In this document: piece after piece, positions 2,897 through 11,652 of the stretch
How the letters are laid out: every line of letters begins with the position of its first letter
Position numbering within the stretch: the first letter of the stretch is position 1
Source of the DNA: Candidatus Hydrogenedentota bacterium
GTDB lineage: Bacteria; Hydrogenedentota; Hydrogenedentia; Hydrogenedentales; GCA-2746185
Length of the DNA stretch: 11,652 bases
Direction: 5' to 3'
Assembly: GCA_046583315.1 (NCBI GenBank)
Contig: JAYGCN010000290.1
Location: 1 to 11,652 of the forward strand
Notes under the pieces: generated by a model
The model's input: the letters and a program-made list of their open reading frames with translations, nothing else
Databases searched by the model: none
Told to the model about the DNA's origin: nothing
Position numbers and translations under genes: made by a program

Positions 2897-3114
2897 TTCG
2901 CATTTTTCGCTATTTGGAGTCATGAAAATACTCACTGTTACCTAAATTAAGTAGAAGATAATTAACCGTTTATGTATCCTTAACACCGTATCGATTAAGG
3001 CACAATAGGCGAAAAATGGTGTTAAGTCTTGAGTGGCTTTCGTTACTATCGAAAGCACCGTTCGGTGAAACCTACAGTACGATGAAAACGAGCCTACTTT
3101 CAGGAGAACCAACT

Positions 3115-4431
3115 ATGCGTTATTGGCTGCGACCCCTTCACTTGGGAACCGCCCTCATCACCGGCATCGCGATGTCCTCGTCCGCATTTGCTGCCGGCGG
3201 TCAGGTCACTTTCACCAAAGACGTGCTCCCGATTTTCCAGGAGAACTGTCAGGAATGCCACCGCGCATCCGGGCTGAATCTCTCTGGCATGGTCGCACCC
3301 ATGTCTCTCACCAGCTACCAGGAAGCACGCCCATGGGCGAAATCGATCGCAAAGGTCGTCAGTGAAAAATCCATGCCCCCCTGGTTCGCTTCCGAAGGAG
3401 ACCACGGGAAATTTGAACTGGAACGTGGACTCAGCGACGAAGAAATCGCGACCATCGTGAAATGGGCGCAGACCGGTGCCAAACGCGGCAATCCAAAAGA
3501 CGCTCCTGCACCAAAAGTTTTCGCATCGGCCGAAGGTTGGACACTGGGTGATCCCGACATCGTTGTAACGCTGGACGAACCTTTCTGGGTCGGTGACGAG
3601 ATTGAAGATCTACAACCCCGCTTTGACACCTATCTGACGACCGACCAACTCGACGAAGACAAATGGATCAAATGGGTGGAGTTCCGACCCGGCTCAACGA
3701 TCGTTCACCACGGTGGCGCGCGCGTGCAGCCAGTTGACGAAAACAAAGAATCAATTATCGATCCCGTCAGCGGCGGAAAAATTATCGGTACCGCTCTCGG
3801 CGATGGTCCAGACCAATGGCCCGAAGGCTACGGAAAACTTGTGCGCAAGGGTTCCAAAGTCACATTCGGCATCCACTACAACAAAGAACCCGGTCCCGGC
3901 ACAGGCGTATACGACCAGTCCTCCATCGCCATCAAATGGCACACCGAACCGGTCAAACACGTCGTACGCTCCGCTGGCATCAGTTCACGCGGCTGGGAAA
4001 TCCCGCCACAACACGACTATTGGGAAGTCGGCGCTGCCCGCACTTTCAACGAAGACTCGGTCATCCTCAACATGATGCCTCACATGCACTGGCGCGGCCG
4101 ATCGGCGCGTTACGTCTTAATCACCCCCGATGGCGAGCGCGAAACTCTGCTGGATGTCCCGAATTACGACTTCAGCTGGCAAATGACCTACTCATACAAG
4201 GAGCCCAAGTTCGTTCCCGCAGGTTCACGCCTTGAGGTAACAATGGCCTTCAATAACTCCTCGGACAACGAATGGGTACCCAATCCCGACCGTGCGGTGG
4301 GTTGGGGCAGCATGACCAAAGACGAAATGAACATTGGCTGGACCGAATACGCCAATGCAGAACCAATTGATGATATCGAAAACTACGACTTCGGTGACGT
4401 GGGAACCGGTGTCGAAGACATTGACGAATAA
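3115..4431 (+). CDS. Secreted cytochrome c / copper type II (PHM/DBH-like) monooxygenase fusion, paralogue 1 (438 aa)
   Basis: AGGAG RBS before ATG 3115; Sec signal ending AFA. CQECH at 3247-3261 and MPPW. CuH-like ligands HH (3706-3711) and H (IHY, 3874); CuM-like ligands HMH (4081-4089) and EM (Met at 4327). YDFSWQ..Y motif. Confidence 0.85.
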   Translation: MRYWLRPLHLGTALITGIAMSSSAFAAGGQVTFTKDVLPIFQENCQECHRASGLNLSGMVAPMSLTSYQEARPWAKSIAKVVSEKSMPPWFASEGDHGKFELERGLSDEEIATIVKWAQTGAKRGNPKDAPAPKVFASAEGWTLGDPDIVVTLDEPFWVGDEIEDLQPRFDTYLTTDQLDEDKWIKWVEFRPGSTIVHHGGARVQPVDENKESIIDPVSGGKIIGTALGDGPDQWPEGYGKLVRKGSKVTFGIHYNKEPGPGTGVYDQSSIAIKWHTEPVKHVVRSAGISSRGWEIPPQHDYWEVGAARTFNEDSVILNMMPHMHWRGRSARYVLITPDGERETLLDVPNYDFSWQMTYSYKEPKFVPAGSRLEVTMAFNNSSDNEWVPNPDRAVGWGSMTKDEMNIGWTEYANAEPIDDIENYDFGDVGTGVEDIDE

Positions 4432-4450
4432 ACAGCAGGAGAGCCTTAAT

Positions 4451-5734
4451 ATGTTGAAGAAGTGGATGACAGGAGTCGCAGCACTGGCAACCGTTTGCGC
4501 AGCAGGCACTACAGCAAACGCGGCGGAAAGAGAACGTATCACATTCAGTAAAGACGTGATGCCTATTATCCAGGAGAATTGCGTGCGCTGCCACCGTTCC
4601 GGCGGAGATAACATTTCCGGTATGGTTGCGCCCATGTCCCTGATGACCTACCAGGAAGTACGCCCCTGGGCCAAATCCATTGCCAAAGCCGTCGCCACCA
4701 AAAAGATGCCCCCCTGGTTCGCTACCGAAGCATCGCACGGTGTCTTCTCCAACGAACGCGGCCTGACCCCCGAAGAAATCGAAACCATCGTCTCATGGGT
4801 ACAAAGCGGCGTGGTACGAGGCAATCCCTCCGACATGCCCGAACCCGTCACCTTCGAATCTGACGGTGGCTGGCTCACCGGTGTACCCGATCTGATCGTC
4901 CGCATGCCGGAAGCCTACTTTGTCGAAGACGACGTTGAAGATCTCTACCAAAGTTTTACCACCGCCCCCATCTCACGTGACCTGATACCAAAGAATACCT
5001 GGCTCAAAGCGATTGAATGGCGTGGCGACTCCGAAGTCGTGCATCACATCGTAGGATCCGCAGCCGTCGAGGGTGAAATGAATGAAAACGGCCTTCCAAA
5101 GCGCTACAGCCTCGGCTCCATCGCTCCCGGCGAAGAAGGCACCTTGTTCCCCGAAGGCCACGGCATTATGCTGCCCGTCGATTCCAAAATCCACTTCAAT
5201 ATGCACTACCACAAAGAAGCTGGCCCCGGCACCGGAAGAATGGACCAGTCCATGGTCGGATTCCAATTCTGGGACGAAGAAAAAGATCCCGAAATCATCC
5301 ATCCCGTAAGCCGCAACGGCATCTCGCACCGCTGGTTCGAAATTCCACCCGGAGTACCCTCCTGGGAAGTCGGCGCGTCCAAAACGTTCACCGTAGACAC
5401 GAACATCATGTCGTTGCACCCGCACATGCACCTGCGCGGTAAAGACGCCAAGTACATCGCCTACTACCCAGACGGCACCCAGGAAACACTGGTCACCGTA
5501 CCCAACTTCGACTTCAACTGGCAGCTGGACTACTTCTACGCAGAACCCAAACAAGTACCTGCTGGTACGCGCGTGGAATTCACTGTGCATTACGACAATT
5601 CCGCCGACAACGAGTACAACCCCGACCACACCATTCCCATGAGCTGGGGCGGTCCGACCACCTCCGAAATGATGATCGGATACATTTCCTACACCAATAC
5701 CGAGCCGGTATCCACGAAAGATTCAACCGACTAG
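4451..5734 (+). CDS. Secreted cytochrome c / copper type II (PHM/DBH-like) monooxygenase fusion, paralogue 2 (427 aa)
   Basis: AGGAGAG RBS before ATG 4451; Sec signal ending ANA. CVRCH at 4580-4594 and MPPW. HH (5042-5047), H (MHY, 5204), HMH (5423-5431), EM (Met at 5669), FDFNWQ..Y. Colinear with paralogue 1. Confidence 0.85.
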   Translation: MLKKWMTGVAALATVCAAGTTANAAERERITFSKDVMPIIQENCVRCHRSGGDNISGMVAPMSLMTYQEVRPWAKSIAKAVATKKMPPWFATEASHGVFSNERGLTPEEIETIVSWVQSGVVRGNPSDMPEPVTFESDGGWLTGVPDLIVRMPEAYFVEDDVEDLYQSFTTAPISRDLIPKNTWLKAIEWRGDSEVVHHIVGSAAVEGEMNENGLPKRYSLGSIAPGEEGTLFPEGHGIMLPVDSKIHFNMHYHKEAGPGTGRMDQSMVGFQFWDEEKDPEIIHPVSRNGISHRWFEIPPGVPSWEVGASKTFTVDTNIMSLHPHMHLRGKDAKYIAYYPDGTQETLVTVPNFDFNWQLDYFYAEPKQVPAGTRVEFTVHYDNSADNEYNPDHTIPMSWGGPTTSEMMIGYISYTNTEPVSTKDSTD

Positions 5735-6534: not shown

Positions 6535-8553
6535 ATGAGCCCAAGTTCCACCAAACGTTCTCTTTATTGGCTAATGGGATTACTCATCGTCTGTGTACTC
6601 CCCCCCGCATCCGCACAAACCACCAACGGCGAATGGCGCTCCTACGGCGGCGACCTGGCCAGCTCCAAATATTCACCGCTCGATCAAATCAACGCCGACA
6701 ACTTCAGCAATCTCGAAATCGCCTTCCGATGGAAATCCGTCGATGCCTTCCTGAACAAAACCGTAGCCGGCGGCGAATGGACGAGCAGCTCCACCAACAT
6801 CTTTGCCGAACTCCAAAAAGAAAATCCCGATCGTTGGCGCGGTGAACGCGAACCCCGTCTCGCCAGTCTCAAAGCCACGCCCCTCATGGTCGACGGCATC
6901 CTCTACATGGTCACCGCGCTCTACCAGGCCGCGGCCATCGACGCCCGCACCGGCGAAACCCTCTGGGTCTACAATCCCAAAAGCTACGAAGCCGGCACCC
7001 CCACCATGTCCATCTACTGGCAACACCGCGGCCCCGCCTACTGGACCGATGGCCTCGAATCCCGAATCCTCTGGGGCACCGGCGATGGGTATCTCTACTC
7101 CGTCGACGCCAAAACAGGCCACCCCAACGCTGACTTCGGCGAAAACGGTCGCGTCGACCTCACCAAAACAATCCCACGTGCCCAACGCGGCGGAAAAGAC
7201 TACCTCAACGCGCTCCTTTACTCCTGCGCATCGCCTCCTCTTGTTATCGGCGACGTCATCGTCACCGGTGCCTCCATTGCCGATCGCCGAGTCGTCAAAG
7301 AATCCCCTCCCGGATGGGTCCGCGGCTGGAACGTGAAAACAGGCGAACTCAAATGGACCTTCAAGACCGTGCCCGAAGGCGAAGAGCTCGGCGCGGACAC
7401 TTGGGAAAATGATTCCTGGAAATACTCCGGCGGTGCGAACGTCTGGACACAGATGAGTGCCGACCCCGAACTGGGTTACGTCTACTTACCCACCGGCACC
7501 GGCACAAACGACTTCTACGGCGGCGATCGACTCGGCGACAACCTTTTCGCTGAATCCCTCATCTGCGTGGATGCTGAAACCGGCGCGCGCATCTGGCATT
7601 TCCAGATGATTCACCACGGCGTATGGGATTACGACAATCCCGCCGCGCCCAACCTGCTCGACATCACCGTCGACGGAAAAGTCATTAAAGCCGTCGCGCA
7701 AATCACCAAACAAGGATACGTCTACGCCTTCAACCGTGAAACCGGCGAACCCATCTGGCCCATCGAAGAAACACCCGTCGACACCAATACCGACATGCCC
7801 GGCGAACGCCTCTCCCCCACGCAACCCATCCCCACCAAACCCGCGCCCTTCGAATACCAGGGTGCCAGCGAAGACGACCTGATCGATTTCACACCCGAAA
7901 TAAAAGAAGCCGCGCTCAAAGAATTGGCCCAATACAAAATCGGCCCACTCTTTACACCACCCGGCAAAAAAGGCACCATCATGCGACCCGGACTCGGAGG
8001 TGGCGCGAACTGGACCGGCGCGGCAGTGGACCCCGAAACCGGAATGTTGTACATCCCCTCACGCAGCGGACACTCCGTCGTACACTTCTACACCCCCGGC
8101 GACGACCTCGGCGGCAATCTCAAATACACCCACGGCGCACGCGGTGGACGCGGTGCAGGCCCCTTCCAGTTGCCCCTCTTCAAGCCCCCCTACTCCCGCA
8201 TGACCGCCATCGACATGAACACCGGCGACCACGCCTGGATGGTCCCCACCGGAGCCGGTAACCACGTGCGCGATCATGAAAAACTCAAAGACCTCAACTT
8301 ACCCCCCGTGGGCGGCGATGCACGCACCGGCCCCCTGCTCACCAAAACCTTACTCATCTACGGAGAAAGCCCCCGAGACGGCTCCCACGCCCTCGTAGCC
8401 CTCGACAAAACCAACGGATACATCCTCGGTCGAGTCTCCATCCCCGGCCGCCCAATAGGCACCCCCATGACCTACCAACTCGATGAAAAACAATATATAG
8501 CCGTAACCGTATCAGCCAGCCCGCCGGAGTTAGTTACCCTCGCCCTGCCCTAA
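6535..8553 (+). CDS. Soluble periplasmic PQQ-dependent dehydrogenase (quinoprotein glucose dehydrogenase-like beta-propeller)
   Basis: AAGGA RBS before ATG 6535; Sec signal ending ASA. Motifs EWRSYGGD...KYSPLDQIN..N, ATPLMVDG.LY, AIDARTGETLW, GGANVW..MSAD, WHFQ..HHGVWDYDNPAAP, GGGANW.GAAVDP and GTPMTY....QYIAV. No gcd-type N-terminal membrane anchor, no CxxCH and no vicinal Cys-Cys. Confidence 0.92.
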   Translation: MSPSSTKRSLYWLMGLLIVCVLPPASAQTTNGEWRSYGGDLASSKYSPLDQINADNFSNLEIAFRWKSVDAFLNKTVAGGEWTSSSTNIFAELQKENPDRWRGEREPRLASLKATPLMVDGILYMVTALYQAAAIDARTGETLWVYNPKSYEAGTPTMSIYWQHRGPAYWTDGLESRILWGTGDGYLYSVDAKTGHPNADFGENGRVDLTKTIPRAQRGGKDYLNALLYSCASPPLVIGDVIVTGASIADRRVVKESPPGWVRGWNVKTGELKWTFKTVPEGEELGADTWENDSWKYSGGANVWTQMSADPELGYVYLPTGTGTNDFYGGDRLGDNLFAESLICVDAETGARIWHFQMIHHGVWDYDNPAAPNLLDITVDGKVIKAVAQITKQGYVYAFNRETGEPIWPIEETPVDTNTDMPGERLSPTQPIPTKPAPFEYQGASEDDLIDFTPEIKEAALKELAQYKIGPLFTPPGKKGTIMRPGLGGGANWTGAAVDPETGMLYIPSRSGHSVVHFYTPGDDLGGNLKYTHGARGGRGAGPFQLPLFKPPYSRMTAIDMNTGDHAWMVPTGAGNHVRDHEKLKDLNLPPVGGDARTGPLLTKTLLIYGESPRDGSHALVALDKTNGYILGRVSIPGRPIGTPMTYQLDEKQYIAVTVSASPPELVTLALP

Positions 8554-9162
8554 TTGGGATTCCTTAACATCGAAATGGTTTCCGAAAAAGTTGCCTTCAA
8601 TGTCGTAGAAATTACCGATGTATTCATTGTCTTCATCAAAATGGTCTTCCGGAACGATGAAAATAACGGCTTCCTCGTCCATATACCTTCGATCCTCATC
8701 AAACAGTTCGGGGCTCTCCGTACGCATTTCGTCCAAAAACTTTTGCGTGACGAGATGCACCTGTGGCCCGGCGTTTAGACGTTGAATTCGACCAGGCAAC
8801 GTTAGCTCGAGGCACGGTAGCCCAATAATAACAAACCCCGCTAAAGGCTGAAACAATATTCCTGTTTCCCCGTCACGAAAAAGCACATCCATCGCCGCAG
8901 AGCCAAGATAGAGTCAATAGAAGATAGAAATAGTCCCGGTAACGAGCTTCGGTGCCCATTGATACTTGCCTGGAAAGGTAATCCCAAGGACGCACACAAA
9001 ACAAAACAATCCTAGTGTGAACATTATTCCGAACTGAGCAAGCGTGAAATCATCAAAGTAGAACGGGAGTACGAAAAATCCAATTCCGGAAATTAGAAAA
9101 ACCGGGACAAGAACGATGAGCACAAATGGTGTTCGCGAGAAAAAAACTTTTGCGAAATTCAC
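8530..9162 (-). pseudogene. Membrane protein gene (about 4 TM helices plus acidic tail) interrupted by one in-frame TGA at 8916-8914
   Basis: ORFs 9162-8914 and 8892-8530 are in the same frame. The AGAGGA RBS precedes only GTG 9162. Reading through gives ...LVTGTISIFY*LYLGSAAMDVLF..., so the stop falls inside a hydrophobic helix. Overlaps the 3' end of the PQQ gene by 24 bp; AT-richer than its neighbours. Confidence 0.65.
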
Positions 9163-9430
9163 GCCGATTCCTCTTTGCCCTGCTACCCAGTTATCTCAGT
9201 ACTAGGTTAGCAAATCACGCAAAGTAAGGCCAACTTGTTCCCAATGAAATCAATACAGGAATCCGTGAGATATGTCGAGCGAAGGAAATATGGCGATAGC
9301 TCAATTGGCTCCAAATCATCATCTTATTCGCCCGAAAAAAATATATAGCGGTAACCGCCAGCGCATCACCCCCAGAATTGGTAGTTTTGGCCTTACCGTG
9401 ACTACTCGATCCGCGGCAATGCCTCAATAA

Positions 9431-9519
9431 ACACTACATAATGTGGCTTATCGTAACCCATACCACACTTAAATCTAAATATGGTTAACAAAAGTCTTGA
9501 CATCCACTACATATTGTGT
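9431..9519. promoter_or_regulatory. Three NrdR boxes (9431-9446, 9472-9487, 9504-9519)
   Basis: Against consensus acaCwAtATaTwGtgt: ACACTACATAATGTGG matches 13/16, AATCTAAATATGGTTA 10/16 with the C-A-AT-T-G core intact, and CCACTACATATTGTGT 14/16. Start-to-start spacings are 41 and 32 bp. Confidence 0.75.
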
Positions 9520-9525
9520 TACATT
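9497..9525 (+). promoter_or_regulatory. sigma70-type promoter
   Basis: TTGACA (9497-9502), 17-bp spacer, TACATT (9520-9525), with extended -10 TG at 9517-9518; predicted start near G9532. Confidence 0.8.
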
Positions 9526-9531
9526 GGTCTC

Positions 9532-9763
9532 GGTGTTGGGAAACACGTAGTTACCGGGGCATTACATTCTCACTTCCCAGAGAGAATGTTCCACAGCCTA
9601 GCCCGGAAGGTCACTACACCCAGAACCGACCGGATTCGTTTACCGCAGCCCAAGCAATCCGGAGGAATCGGTTCTACCCGCAGTTGCAATAGTAGCTCGG
9701 TTTGTTACCCTACACTCCCTGCTTTTGGCGGCGAGTTCCTAGAACTCGCCGCCCTTCCTTTGT
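9532..9763 (+). ncRNA. Candidate structured non-coding RNA of unrecognised family
   Basis: Bounded by a promoter and a terminator. The 5' end (9532-9554) pairs with 9692-9716 (about 20 bp with mismatches and bulges). Internal hairpins at 9564-9589 (8 bp) and 9622-9675 (8+7 bp). No convincing RBS-led ORF is contained within it. Confidence 0.6.
9727..9763 (+). terminator. Rho-independent terminator
   Basis: Perfect 12-bp stem GGCGGCGAGTTC/GAACTCGCCGCC, CTA loop, then pyrimidine tail CTTCCTTTGT (imperfect U-tract). Confidence 0.75.
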
Positions 9764-9805
9764 CCTCCCGGACGGTATGAATTTGGGTATTTTTTGGCCT
9801 CCTCA

Positions 9806-9892
9806 ATCTGGGTTAATCCGTGTTCATCTGTGGTTAAAAAAAGGCAGTTTTCAGTTTCTTCCTCTGCGCCTTTGCGTCTTTACGTTAAAAAA
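9806..9892. repeat. Two short triplet tandem repeats (10-mer x3 and 8-mer x3)
   Basis: ATCTGGGTTA-ATCCGTGTTC-ATCTGTGGTT (9806-9835) and CTCTGCGC-CTTTGCGT-CTTTACGT (9862-9885), each ending in GTTAAAAAA. Confidence 0.7.
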
Positions 9893-9965
9893 GCGATTTT
9901 CGGTTCCCCTGTAATTTCTCCTGTTACCTTGCTAAACTGAACCAAAACGCAAGGACAAATGCACG

Positions 9966-10916
9966 ATGTTCAAAATTCATCCAGTAGTTATATCCATCCT
10001 ACTATTCACCCTCCCACTCACGACTTGGGCGGATTTCACCATCCAAGACGCCAACGGAAAAGTCCACGTCCTTGAGAACAACAAACCAGTGTTCACCTAC
10101 AACTACGATCGCGTTGATCCGCCGGAGTCGCTCGGGCCGGACGCGGACGCGTATTGGCGGTCGAGTTATCTTTACCCGGTTTACGACACGCACGGCGTGA
10201 ACATCACGGATGATTTTCCTTCGGACCATTATCATCATCGCGGGATTTTCTGGAGTTGGCCGGAGTGCCGGGTCGGGGATCGCACGATGGATGTGTGGAC
10301 CTTGAAGGGTGTGCGCCAGGTCTTCGAGAAATGGAACGTCCTGAAGATTGAAAACAACCGTGCGACGCTCTCCGTGCAAAACGTCTGGCGCTTCGACGAC
10401 GACCCAACACCCGTCGTGCGCGAAAACGTGACCATCGTCACCCATGCCGCAGTCGAAGACACCCGCGCGATCGACTTCATTCTGCAATTCAAGAACATCA
10501 CAAAAGAAATCGTCACCTTCCAGGGCGCGACCGACAAAGGTTACGGCGGCTTCAAATTCCGACTCGACGCCACCCAAAAACCATTCACCTTCAACACCGA
10601 CGACGGCCTTCAAAAGCGCGACACCTGGCACGCGGACTCCCCCTGGGTCGACACGCTCTGGACGAATTCCGAATCGAAAAAGATTCAAGGCGTCGCCATC
10701 TTTCAACACCCGGACAACCCCGACTATCCTCACGACGGCTGGATGATCAGGCACTACGGCATCATCGGTCCCGCCTGGCCACATGAAGGCTCCCACAAAT
10801 TACAACCCGACGAATCACTCACCCTGAAATACCGACTGCTCATTCACGACGGGGACACACGTTCCGCGGGAATTGGGCAGGCCTTCGACACCTATGAAAA
10901 ATCCGCCCGCAACTAG
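9966..10916 (+). CDS. Secreted PF14100 'PmoA-like'/DUF6807 family protein, function unknown (not particulate methane monooxygenase)
   Basis: AAGGA RBS; Sec signal ending TWA. Motifs PVFTYNY, RSSYLYPV...G..ITDDFPSDHYHHRGIFWSW, KGYGGF..R, GVAIFQHPDNP, W..R.YG and L.LKYRLLIHDG. Confidence 0.8.
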   Translation: MFKIHPVVISILLFTLPLTTWADFTIQDANGKVHVLENNKPVFTYNYDRVDPPESLGPDADAYWRSSYLYPVYDTHGVNITDDFPSDHYHHRGIFWSWPECRVGDRTMDVWTLKGVRQVFEKWNVLKIENNRATLSVQNVWRFDDDPTPVVRENVTIVTHAAVEDTRAIDFILQFKNITKEIVTFQGATDKGYGGFKFRLDATQKPFTFNTDDGLQKRDTWHADSPWVDTLWTNSESKKIQGVAIFQHPDNPDYPHDGWMIRHYGIIGPAWPHEGSHKLQPDESLTLKYRLLIHDGDTRSAGIGQAFDTYEKSARN

Positions 10917-11050
10917 ATTGCCTCGATTAGTGCCGGAATCCAGCCCTTTCGTTAATTTCAGCCCTAACTTCCATCAACCACCGAAATTCTTTTATAATCA
11001 ACTTTTTTAGTATTAACAAAACCTATTATATGTATCAGAATTTTCAACAG

Positions 11051-11099
11051 TCGTTAAATAGTTAACCTTTTCTATTGACATGTGTTTACATATTAACTA
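11051..11099. promoter_or_regulatory. Two Rex-like operator palindromes (11051-11068, 11082-11099)
   Basis: TCGTTAA-ATAG-TTAACCT and GTGTTTA-CATA-TTAACTA each match 11/14 positions of TTGTTAA-N4-TTAACAA. They are 31 bp apart, and the second lies in the promoter spacer. Confidence 0.5.
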
Positions 11100-11103
11100 A
11101 AAT
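11075..11103 (+). promoter_or_regulatory. sigma70-type promoter of pntA
   Basis: TTGACA (11075-11080), 17-bp spacer, TAAAAT (11098-11103). Confidence 0.8.
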
Positions 11104-11200
11104 GCCGATTCTCTTTTCCAAGATGCCGTGATACCCTACCATTTGTCGTTCGGGTACAGCACCCGAATCGACCCTGAGCAACGCCCAGAAGGGAACGTCC

Positions 11201-11652
11201 ATGCGAATATTTGTACCAAAAGAAACTCACCCCGGTGAAAGCCGTGTGTCCTTGATTCCTCAAGACGCCAAAAAACTGGTGGGATTCGGCGCGGAGGTCA
11301 TCATCGAGTCAGGAATGGGTCTGCCCTCCCGTCATGAAGACGCCGCCTACGAAGAAGCCGGCGCTACGGTCTCCTCGGATCGTGGCACGGAACTTGAGCA
11401 AGCCGACATCGTGCTTCGACTTCGCAAACCGTCTATCGCCGAAGTAAAACTCCTTAAAGCCAACAGCATTCACGTGAGTTTTCTCGATCCCTTTAACGAA
11501 CGCGAATTGATCGATGCTTTCCTTGAGCAAAAAGTAAACGCCATCAGCATGGAGATGATTCCGCGTACAACACTCGCCCAGAAAATGGACGCGTTGAGTT
11601 CGCAGGCCAACCTTGCGGGTTACACCGCCGTCATGCTCGGTGCCGAACGTCT
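11201..11652 (+). CDS. pntA: NAD(P) transhydrogenase subunit alpha (domain I), 3'-truncated by the window edge; missing from the ORF track
   Basis: Own translation: MRIFVPKETHPGESRVSLIPQDAKKLV..G.EVIIESGMG...AYEEAGA...ADIVLRLRKP...AISMEMIPRTTLAQKMDALSSQANLAGYTAVMLGA. The PR...AQ.MDALSSQANLAGY motif is diagnostic of PntA rather than alanine dehydrogenase. AAGGGA RBS. Confidence 0.95.
   Translation, partial: MRIFVPKETHPGESRVSLIPQDAKKLVGFGAEVIIESGMGLPSRHEDAAYEEAGATVSSDRGTELEQADIVLRLRKPSIAEVKLLKANSIHVSFLDPFNERELIDAFLEQKVNAISMEMIPRTTLAQKMDALSSQANLAGYTAVMLGAER

Follow-up and report, generated by a model that had tools for sequence, protein, structure and literature searches.

A core structured RNA of the main order of Candidatus Hydrogenedentota with NrdR-type boxes at its promoter

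Metabolite-sensing repressors often act with an RNA arm, as Fur does with RyhB, a small RNA that requires Hfq, and sponges of the CsrB/RsmZ type repeat a GGA motif in their loops. 6C RNA of Actinobacteria is described as a clade-wide RNA of bacteria without Hfq that pairs chaperone-independently by repeated C-rich loops and represses dnaB, a replication gene (PMC6486639). CcnA of Caulobacter, about 182 nt long and encoded at the origin, is described as controlled by CtrA, a cell-cycle regulator whose box lies in the CcnA promoter, and as pairing by a C-rich loop with G-rich leaders (PMC8959179). NrdR recognizes a 16-bp box with conserved positions C4, A6, A8, T9, T11 and G13 (PMC13584703) and requires two such boxes a whole number of helical turns apart (PMC12051234); dATP/ATP-loaded NrdR binds DNA, whereas ATP-loaded NrdR does not (PMC9110341). 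In the accessible parts of these three papers, box pairs lie 31-32 or 41-42 bp apart and overlap promoters, and the genes named as controlled are reductase operons and nrdR.

The RNA described here belongs to an apparently new structured family, without an Rfam match, probably of the regulator-controlled bacterial small RNA type, and it resembles each of these systems in part. Like 6C RNA it is clade-wide and displays repeated C-rich loops, and Hfq was not found in 5/5 genomes tested, two of them single-contig; but it has no sequence or Rfam match to 6C RNA, its loops read CCGCAGCCCA and contain no run of six C, where 6C RNA has two stem-loops with six conserved C, its body is multibranched and closed, and its promoter is of NrdR type. 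It shares with CcnA a similar length, a regulator's box in the promoter and C-rich loops, but CcnA is alphaproteobacterial and not homologous, and the predicted regulator here is a nucleotide sensor rather than CtrA. In the window its boxes match those of the published NrdR regulon in length, conserved positions, spacing and overlap with the promoter, but here they precede an RNA gene and, by motif, mraZ. Size, paired ends, single copy and apparent abundance recall 6S RNA, from which it differs by a branched fold, the lack of a match to the 6S model and a separate 6S gene in the genome. It repeats one motif in its loops as CsrB does, but hardly displays the GGA repeat, and RyhB differs in its need for Hfq.

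The RNA gene lies in an 11,652-nt stretch of Candidatus Hydrogenedentota DNA, here called the window, which is the whole of contig C307 of genome G000, in an intergenic stretch ahead of a DUF6807 gene (9966-10916); pntA, which starts at 11201, is preceded by a near-consensus promoter of its own (11075-11103) and flanks the RNA in 16/69 loci. Elsewhere in the window are two tandem paralogous proteins (3016-5734) that carry a cytochrome c motif and weakly match a Cu type II monooxygenase C-terminal domain, and a 120-aa acidic ORF on the minus strand (8530-8892), convergent with a PQQ dehydrogenase and without Pfam or NCBIfam match. The TTGACA-17-TACATT promoter proposed by the first-pass annotation is in place (Table 1), and an extended -10 TG (9517-9518) is also present. 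By itself such a match is not above chance, since shuffles yield 6.9 promoter-like sites and the window only five; the distance from the -10 hexamer to the first helix is nearly fixed across 29 loci.

Table 1. Promoter, NrdR-type boxes and RNA elements, with positions in the window
Feature	Position	Strand	Remarks
Distal NrdR-type box	9431-9446	.	16.3 bits on the matrix; spacing 41 bp to the middle and 73 bp to the promoter box
Middle NrdR-type box	9472-9487	.	Six conserved positions met, low matrix score; 32 bp from the promoter box
-35 hexamer TTGACA	9497-9502	+	Same place in 29/30 loci examined; the 30th is cut by a contig end
Promoter NrdR-type box	9504-9519	.	Occupies the -35/-10 spacer; right end is the extended -10 TG (9517-9518)
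-10 hexamer TACATT	9520-9525	+	Predicted start C9531/G9532, from the promoter
RNA body	9532-9722	+	Four-way junction closed by P1; RNA contigs including loose ends span about 9540-9720
P2 arm	9547-9617	+	Lacking in short forms; CCACAGCCUA at 9591-9600, next to hairpin 9564-9589, is an unpaired copy of the motif
P3 arm	9622-9675	+	Loop motif CCGCAGCCCA at 9643-9652 is the most conserved element
P4 hairpin	9678-9700	+	UUGCGCC in 47/55 homologues; UUGCAAU in this lineage
CACWCCCYGC	9713-9722	+	P1 end and C-rich linker; CCYGC ahead of the hairpin in 50/55
3' hairpin, probably terminator	9727-9761	+	12-bp hairpin 9727-9753; loop CCCAA in 37/55

The transcript folds into a branched body. Folding z-scores were -5.80 with the 3' hairpin and -3.32 without it, and 0/200 shuffles were equally stable in either case. 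Three helices drawn in the first-pass annotation were recovered, namely the closing helix P1 (9532-9545/9703-9716, pair probabilities 0.91-1.0), the hairpin at 9564-9589 and the long hairpin at 9622-9675. Its extension of the closing helix (9546-9554/9692-9699) fell away, with a pair probability of at most 0.0009, as did a possible pairing of 9555-9558 with 9677-9680 (0.0) and a CC-GGAA-GG tetraloop at 9603-9610 (0.0015), which relatives' transcripts break by changes at G9605, G9606 and G9609. The extension is replaced by P2 (9547-9560/9601-9617) and P4, which form in 27/28 long-form homologues against 0/28 for the extension, the 28 being those of the 55 extracted RNAs that are long and carry two motif copies, each folded singly; P2 was tested by folding each sequence because it aligns poorly. 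The 12-bp hairpin of the proposed terminator stands, but the U run does not follow it directly, since a C-rich CUUCC intervenes. A tail of this CYUCC type, anti-Shine-Dalgarno-like, follows the 3' hairpin in 47/55 RNAs and 0/44 ordinary GC-rich U-tailed hairpins of the genome, two counts made with different filters.

The conserved letters of the RNA are unpaired and C-rich. The heptamer YAGCCYW occurs 91 times in the 55 RNAs, mostly unpaired, against 0.18 times per RNA in shuffles, and the YAGCCCA/CCCAAG motif is found in a terminal loop, an internal loop and the junction, in some RNAs also in the loop of the 3' hairpin, and its copy number varies (counts from 55 of 70 loci, one of the 55 wrongly truncated). 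Long forms measure about 190-210 nt before the hairpin and contain P2; short forms, of about 130-150 nt, lack it. A pseudoknot between P3 and P4 (CGCAG with UUGCG) was rejected: 96.8% of its cells are paired but invariant, with no covariation, and it is broken in two lineages.

How widespread is the RNA? A covariance model of its 3' half only, built from 25 of 30 fetched loci, matches 118/135 Ca. Hydrogenedentota genomes, a count that includes the training genomes, and 79/86 high-quality ones, nearly always in single copy; six genomes have a weak second match, and the two weakest best matches have E values of 0.001-0.006. When five genomes missed by the model were re-examined, two proved to hold copies cut by contig ends and three, including both genomes outside the order (G041 and G042, without a match to either model), showed none. 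BLAST gave a match in 5/40 relatives. A two-motif pattern occurred once each in 47/135 genomes, against 2/135 for the reversed control, and a promoter-plus-start pattern had 35 matches in 185,579 genomes, 33 of them with the RNA, one cut short and one unrelated, a non-homologous Clostridia record. A record titled archaeal holds a typical copy at a contig end and is probably misbinned; viral contigs gave 0 matches to one strict pattern. These genome counts show spread, not significance, because kin are not independent. The covariation to which the first-pass annotation had looked is present in the homologues: in a 25-sequence alignment two-sided changes are seen at 18 of the 33 named pairs, a number reached by 0/500 shuffles, paired cells make up 87.9% against 36-45% in slid controls, and P1 has such changes at 5/11 pairs among 20 long forms. 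The family is a core, single-copy RNA of the main order of Ca. Hydrogenedentota, restricted to that one order among the genomes searched.

The locus does not code for a conserved protein. Protein-like conservation of the 9586-9780 frame, which the first-pass annotation had raised as the counter-case, is not seen among homologues; in a same-genus homologue both this frame and 9481-9780 contain stops and lack a matching start, and translation of ten homologues revealed no frame that stays open in all of them. Rfam assigned the locus to no family, yielding only weak terminator-type matches at gathering and E-value thresholds. SRP RNA, tmRNA and RNase P RNA were each found elsewhere in the genome, ARAGORN reported 0 tRNAs in the window, and a bacterial Y RNA was discarded, since TROVE/Ro60 was not found in any of five genomes tested or among the neighbours identified. 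As proposed, the RNA gene stands alone: its neighbours vary in kind and strand, and no ORF is kept. Neighbours of 69/70 loci fall into many clusters, of which the commonest, pntA (16 loci), lies upstream and divergent in 13/16. The claim that no NrdR-controlled non-coding RNA is known holds in the literature examined: papers, mostly open-access ones, on NrdR with non-coding RNA, small RNA or motifs and on RNA motifs of the phylum contain no NrdR-controlled RNA gene and no member of this family, nor does the literature on NrdR control of mraZ.

Environmental RNA contains the transcript. Parts of 9400-9800 occur, mostly as small shares, in 24 RNA runs from 20 studies, and in 4/4 of the metatranscriptomes among them that were aligned to 8300-11300 (4 studies) contigs cover only the RNA body. 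These contigs, which give no strand, level or exact ends, are 159-174 nt long, lie at 9540-9710, 9582-9696, 9547-9710 and 9547-9701 and are 90-99% identical to the window; one further piece, of 33 nt at 9806-9838, fits by chance. Because the runs were found using this stretch, the lack of contigs on either side does not show that the flanks are silent. Contigs of two studies stop at 9710 and none reaches the 3' hairpin, a weak hint that the mature RNA measures about 190 nt and that the tail may be absent from the stable form. Together, these data show a non-coding, structured RNA that does not depend on the genes around it and is found in RNA from the environment.

The NrdR boxes said to cover the promoter are borne out as three 16-mers, 41 and 32 bp apart (Table 1). 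We scored sites with a matrix trained only on 53 RNA-promoter boxes, taking at least 12 bits as a strong upstream site. The promoter box is the second-best matrix site in the genome (22.9 bits) and one of only two perfect matches to the NrdR-box consensus in the 4.65-Mb genome. It sits at one fixed position between -35 and -10 in 29/29 promoters, all of which keep C4, A6, A8, T11 and G13, with T9 kept in 26/29; on a larger set of 58 promoters located among 69 loci, all six conserved NrdR positions are kept in 51, and of the other seven two have an intact box that the automatic placement had missed. One genome offers a natural control: G016 (L110) has lost the promoter box, yet keeps the RNA and nrdR. 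The distal box recurs at -94 to -98 in 27/58 homologous promoters, and the middle box has the same offset in a relative (G001). Upstream boxes number 79 in the 58 promoters against 5.3 in shuffles, and 24/58 have a phased pair somewhere upstream against 0.3 in shuffles. The promoter box itself has a correctly spaced partner in only 7/58 promoters and none in 51/58; the commoner layout is a 41-42-bp pair at about -55/-96, slightly off whole helical turns, which the promoter box may contact by looping.

The same motif recurs at genes of nucleotide metabolism and division. Matrix sites lie upstream of thyX-nrdJ in 14/20 cases (0.12 expected), of nrdR in 21/25 (0.1 expected) and of mraZ in 17/28 (0.25 expected, with 12 phased pairs), against 0/29 for dnaA; strong sites at the first three are often paired, 30-32 or 40-42 bp apart. 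An upstream box is present at 2/5 class I nrdAB loci, and the other three (L042, L043, L044) have a cobalamin riboswitch and no box. Because the motif is shared with thyX-nrdJ, nrdR and mraZ, and because nrdR (126/135 genomes) and a B12-dependent reductase (40/41) are widespread, we take it to be the NrdR box of this phylum.

Several sites deserve separate mention. mraZ is the first gene of the division cluster, and its NrdR-type boxes can be seen at G000:C114:9456-9503 (L208) and in L203-L232. The long AT-rich region before thyX-nrdJ (G000:C350:500-1200, L047) contains several NrdR-type boxes, along with two 9-mers that resemble the DnaA-box consensus. In L297 (G059) and L299 (G044) the same promoter and box precede a fliQ-like gene, recognized by eye, with a second box-like site just downstream; fliQ of G000 is without this layout. 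In the two genomes outside the order (L294:1501-1800 in G041; L295 in G042) a small Lys/Ala-rich histone-H1-like ORF is under a promoter of the same layout, and in G041 a helix of about 22 bp joins the two ends of the transcript around the ORF; the corresponding gene of G000, at C66, has no box.

What might this RNA do? Our best reading, to which we give a probability of roughly 0.4, is an RNA repressed by NrdR whose C-rich loops base-pair without the help of Hfq. Its transcriptional part is likely, judging from the boxes: dATP/ATP-loaded NrdR would repress the sigma-70 promoter, and at low dATP the promoter would open together with thyX-nrdJ, nrdR and the mraZ division cluster, a derepression predicted from the published mechanism of NrdR. 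For the part played by the RNA itself we see even odds, by analogy with the pairing RNAs above. P1 would protect the ends, and the arms would present single-stranded, C-rich segments (two copies of YAGCCCA, the loop of P4, the linker, the loop of the 3' hairpin and the CYUCC tail) that would pair in trans, unaided by Hfq, with the G-rich leaders or ribosome-binding sites of a number of mRNAs. In this way NrdR, a repressor that acts on DNA, would also act rapidly after transcription and with the opposite sign, much as RyhB does for Fur. We place base pairing first, with protein binding close behind, because several C-rich single strands in genomes without detected Hfq resemble 6C RNA and CcnA.

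Several observations count against this reading: phased partners of the promoter box are scarce, G016 keeps the RNA without the box, the RNA contigs end short of the 3' hairpin, and a long closing helix with a repeated invariant motif would suit a protein-bound RNA just as well. No target emerged, moreover, from a search of six genes, part of the rRNA and a single sequence pattern. Loop seeds on the start regions of nrdR, thyX and pntA were unremarkable; an excess at nrdJ (6/26 for two seeds) looks like its strong Shine-Dalgarno sequence, and one at mraZ was gone in shuffles that keep its GTGG repeats. Codons after a conserved Trp of dnaA can pair with the P4 and hairpin loops, ranking in the best 5% in 6/29 cases; for this region, chosen post hoc, comparison with synonymously shuffled versions of 30 genes gave P = 0.014 and 0.004. 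We rejected dnaA nonetheless: a genome-matched check failed, A/T-rich 5' codons confound the comparison, the complement is missing from five genomes whose RNA has the consensus P4 loop, and the best match falls where the RNA lacks that loop. Perfect loop complements before a Shine-Dalgarno site gave scattered unrelated matches in 30/135 genomes. As a separate observation, many genomes contain a further DnaA-like match, which lies in a far longer frame of 600-1200 aa, and full-length dnaA is present more than once in G014 and G012.

These results bear on a second, tentative reading that we take seriously, in which the RNA is equally under NrdR but the repeated YAGCCCA/CCCAAG is a protein site, making it a sponge or scaffold for a replication or division protein. 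That one motif should recur in variable copy number in terminal loop, internal loop, junction and sometimes the 3' hairpin loop suits such a site, as do the long end-closing helix, the discrete 159-174-nt contigs and the empty mRNA searches; a candidate partner would be an order-wide, degenerate NrdD-like ATP-cone protein encoded behind nrdR, which scores 61.9 bits against the NrdD cut-off of 326 and was found in 116/135 genomes. However, this protein is also encoded by the two genomes outside the order, in which no copy of the RNA was detected, the other C-rich stretches are unlike the motif in sequence, and no partner was identified among the candidates examined: CsrA, although encoded in 5/5 genomes, is excluded, with the CsrB/RsmZ-type sponge, by only three unpaired GGA in 55 RNAs, and Ro60/TROVE was not found in any of five genomes. 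The NrdD-like protein directly behind nrdR (C172:15684-16133) in G000 (C172:16153-18423, L009) has no C-terminal radical motif by eye and is possibly a nucleotide-sensing pseudo-enzyme.

It is unlikely that the palindrome is no working NrdR operator here, being instead the site of a different factor or a single box retained in part because it serves as the extended -10. The scarcity of phased partners (7/58), the off-turn upstream positions near -55 and -96, the overlap of its TGTG end with the extended -10 and its presence before mraZ and fliQ, wider than the published NrdR regulon, speak for this; but C4, A6, A8 and T11 lie outside the extended -10 and are invariant in 29/29, ahead of thyX-nrdJ and nrdR the motif is paired at spacings of 30-32 and 40-42 bp, upstream boxes and phased pairs far exceed shuffles, and spacings of 32 and 41 bp are both present in the window.

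It is improbable that the RNA is a second, polymerase-binding RNA of the 6S kind. Length, paired ends and apparent abundance are similar, and short forms look like a closed bubble from which one long arm extends, but long forms are four-way junctions instead of a single irregular hairpin with a central bubble, and P3 is short for a promoter mimic by the dimensions of 6S RNA. RF00013, as the first-pass annotation had suspected, gives no match at E up to 10, and this genome encodes a separate 6S RNA, as do 34/41 genomes, never at this locus. Slighter still are the chances of a ribosome-associated RNA or mimic of the 16S 3' end: a GC hairpin and CYUCC tail in 47/55 RNAs do look like the genome's own 16S end, but the RNA contigs are without the tail, 16S, 6S, SRP and tmRNA contain no match of note, and the loop complement, present in the A-loop of other bacteria, is absent from the 23S A-loop helix in 57/57 copies listed for the phylum, the source genome's 23S not being assembled there. 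Finally, a riboswitch, leader or small-protein mRNA is largely refuted: the P3-loop CGCAG could pair with the P4-loop UUGCG and pntA is a neighbour in 16/69 loci, but the RNA has no fixed place upstream of a conserved gene family, downstream genes differ and often lie on the opposite strand, pntA is mostly upstream and divergent, the loop-loop pairs lack covariation and are broken both in the window and in family f13, where the two motifs are nevertheless kept, and no open frame runs across the ten homologues translated.

Returning to the NrdR-repressed pairing RNA, the distribution of boxes suggests that NrdR in this phylum also covers the division operon. Tentatively, NrdR may be a cell-cycle regulator here, acting on the reductase, thymidylate synthase, the mraZ cluster and some flagellar promoters, with the apparently abundant RNA as its effector arm, passing nucleotide status through its modular YAGCCCA architecture to translation or a protein partner. 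If so, the status of the dNTP pool would be signalled after transcription through an RNA. No RNA arm of NrdR, a widespread dATP/ATP sensor, is described in the literature examined, and an RNA kept almost throughout an order, with NrdR-type boxes at its promoter, makes it possible to ask in concrete terms whether dNTP supply is signalled after transcription. As its hosts are mostly uncultured, the RNA can also serve as a marker of this uncultured phylum in metatranscriptomes.
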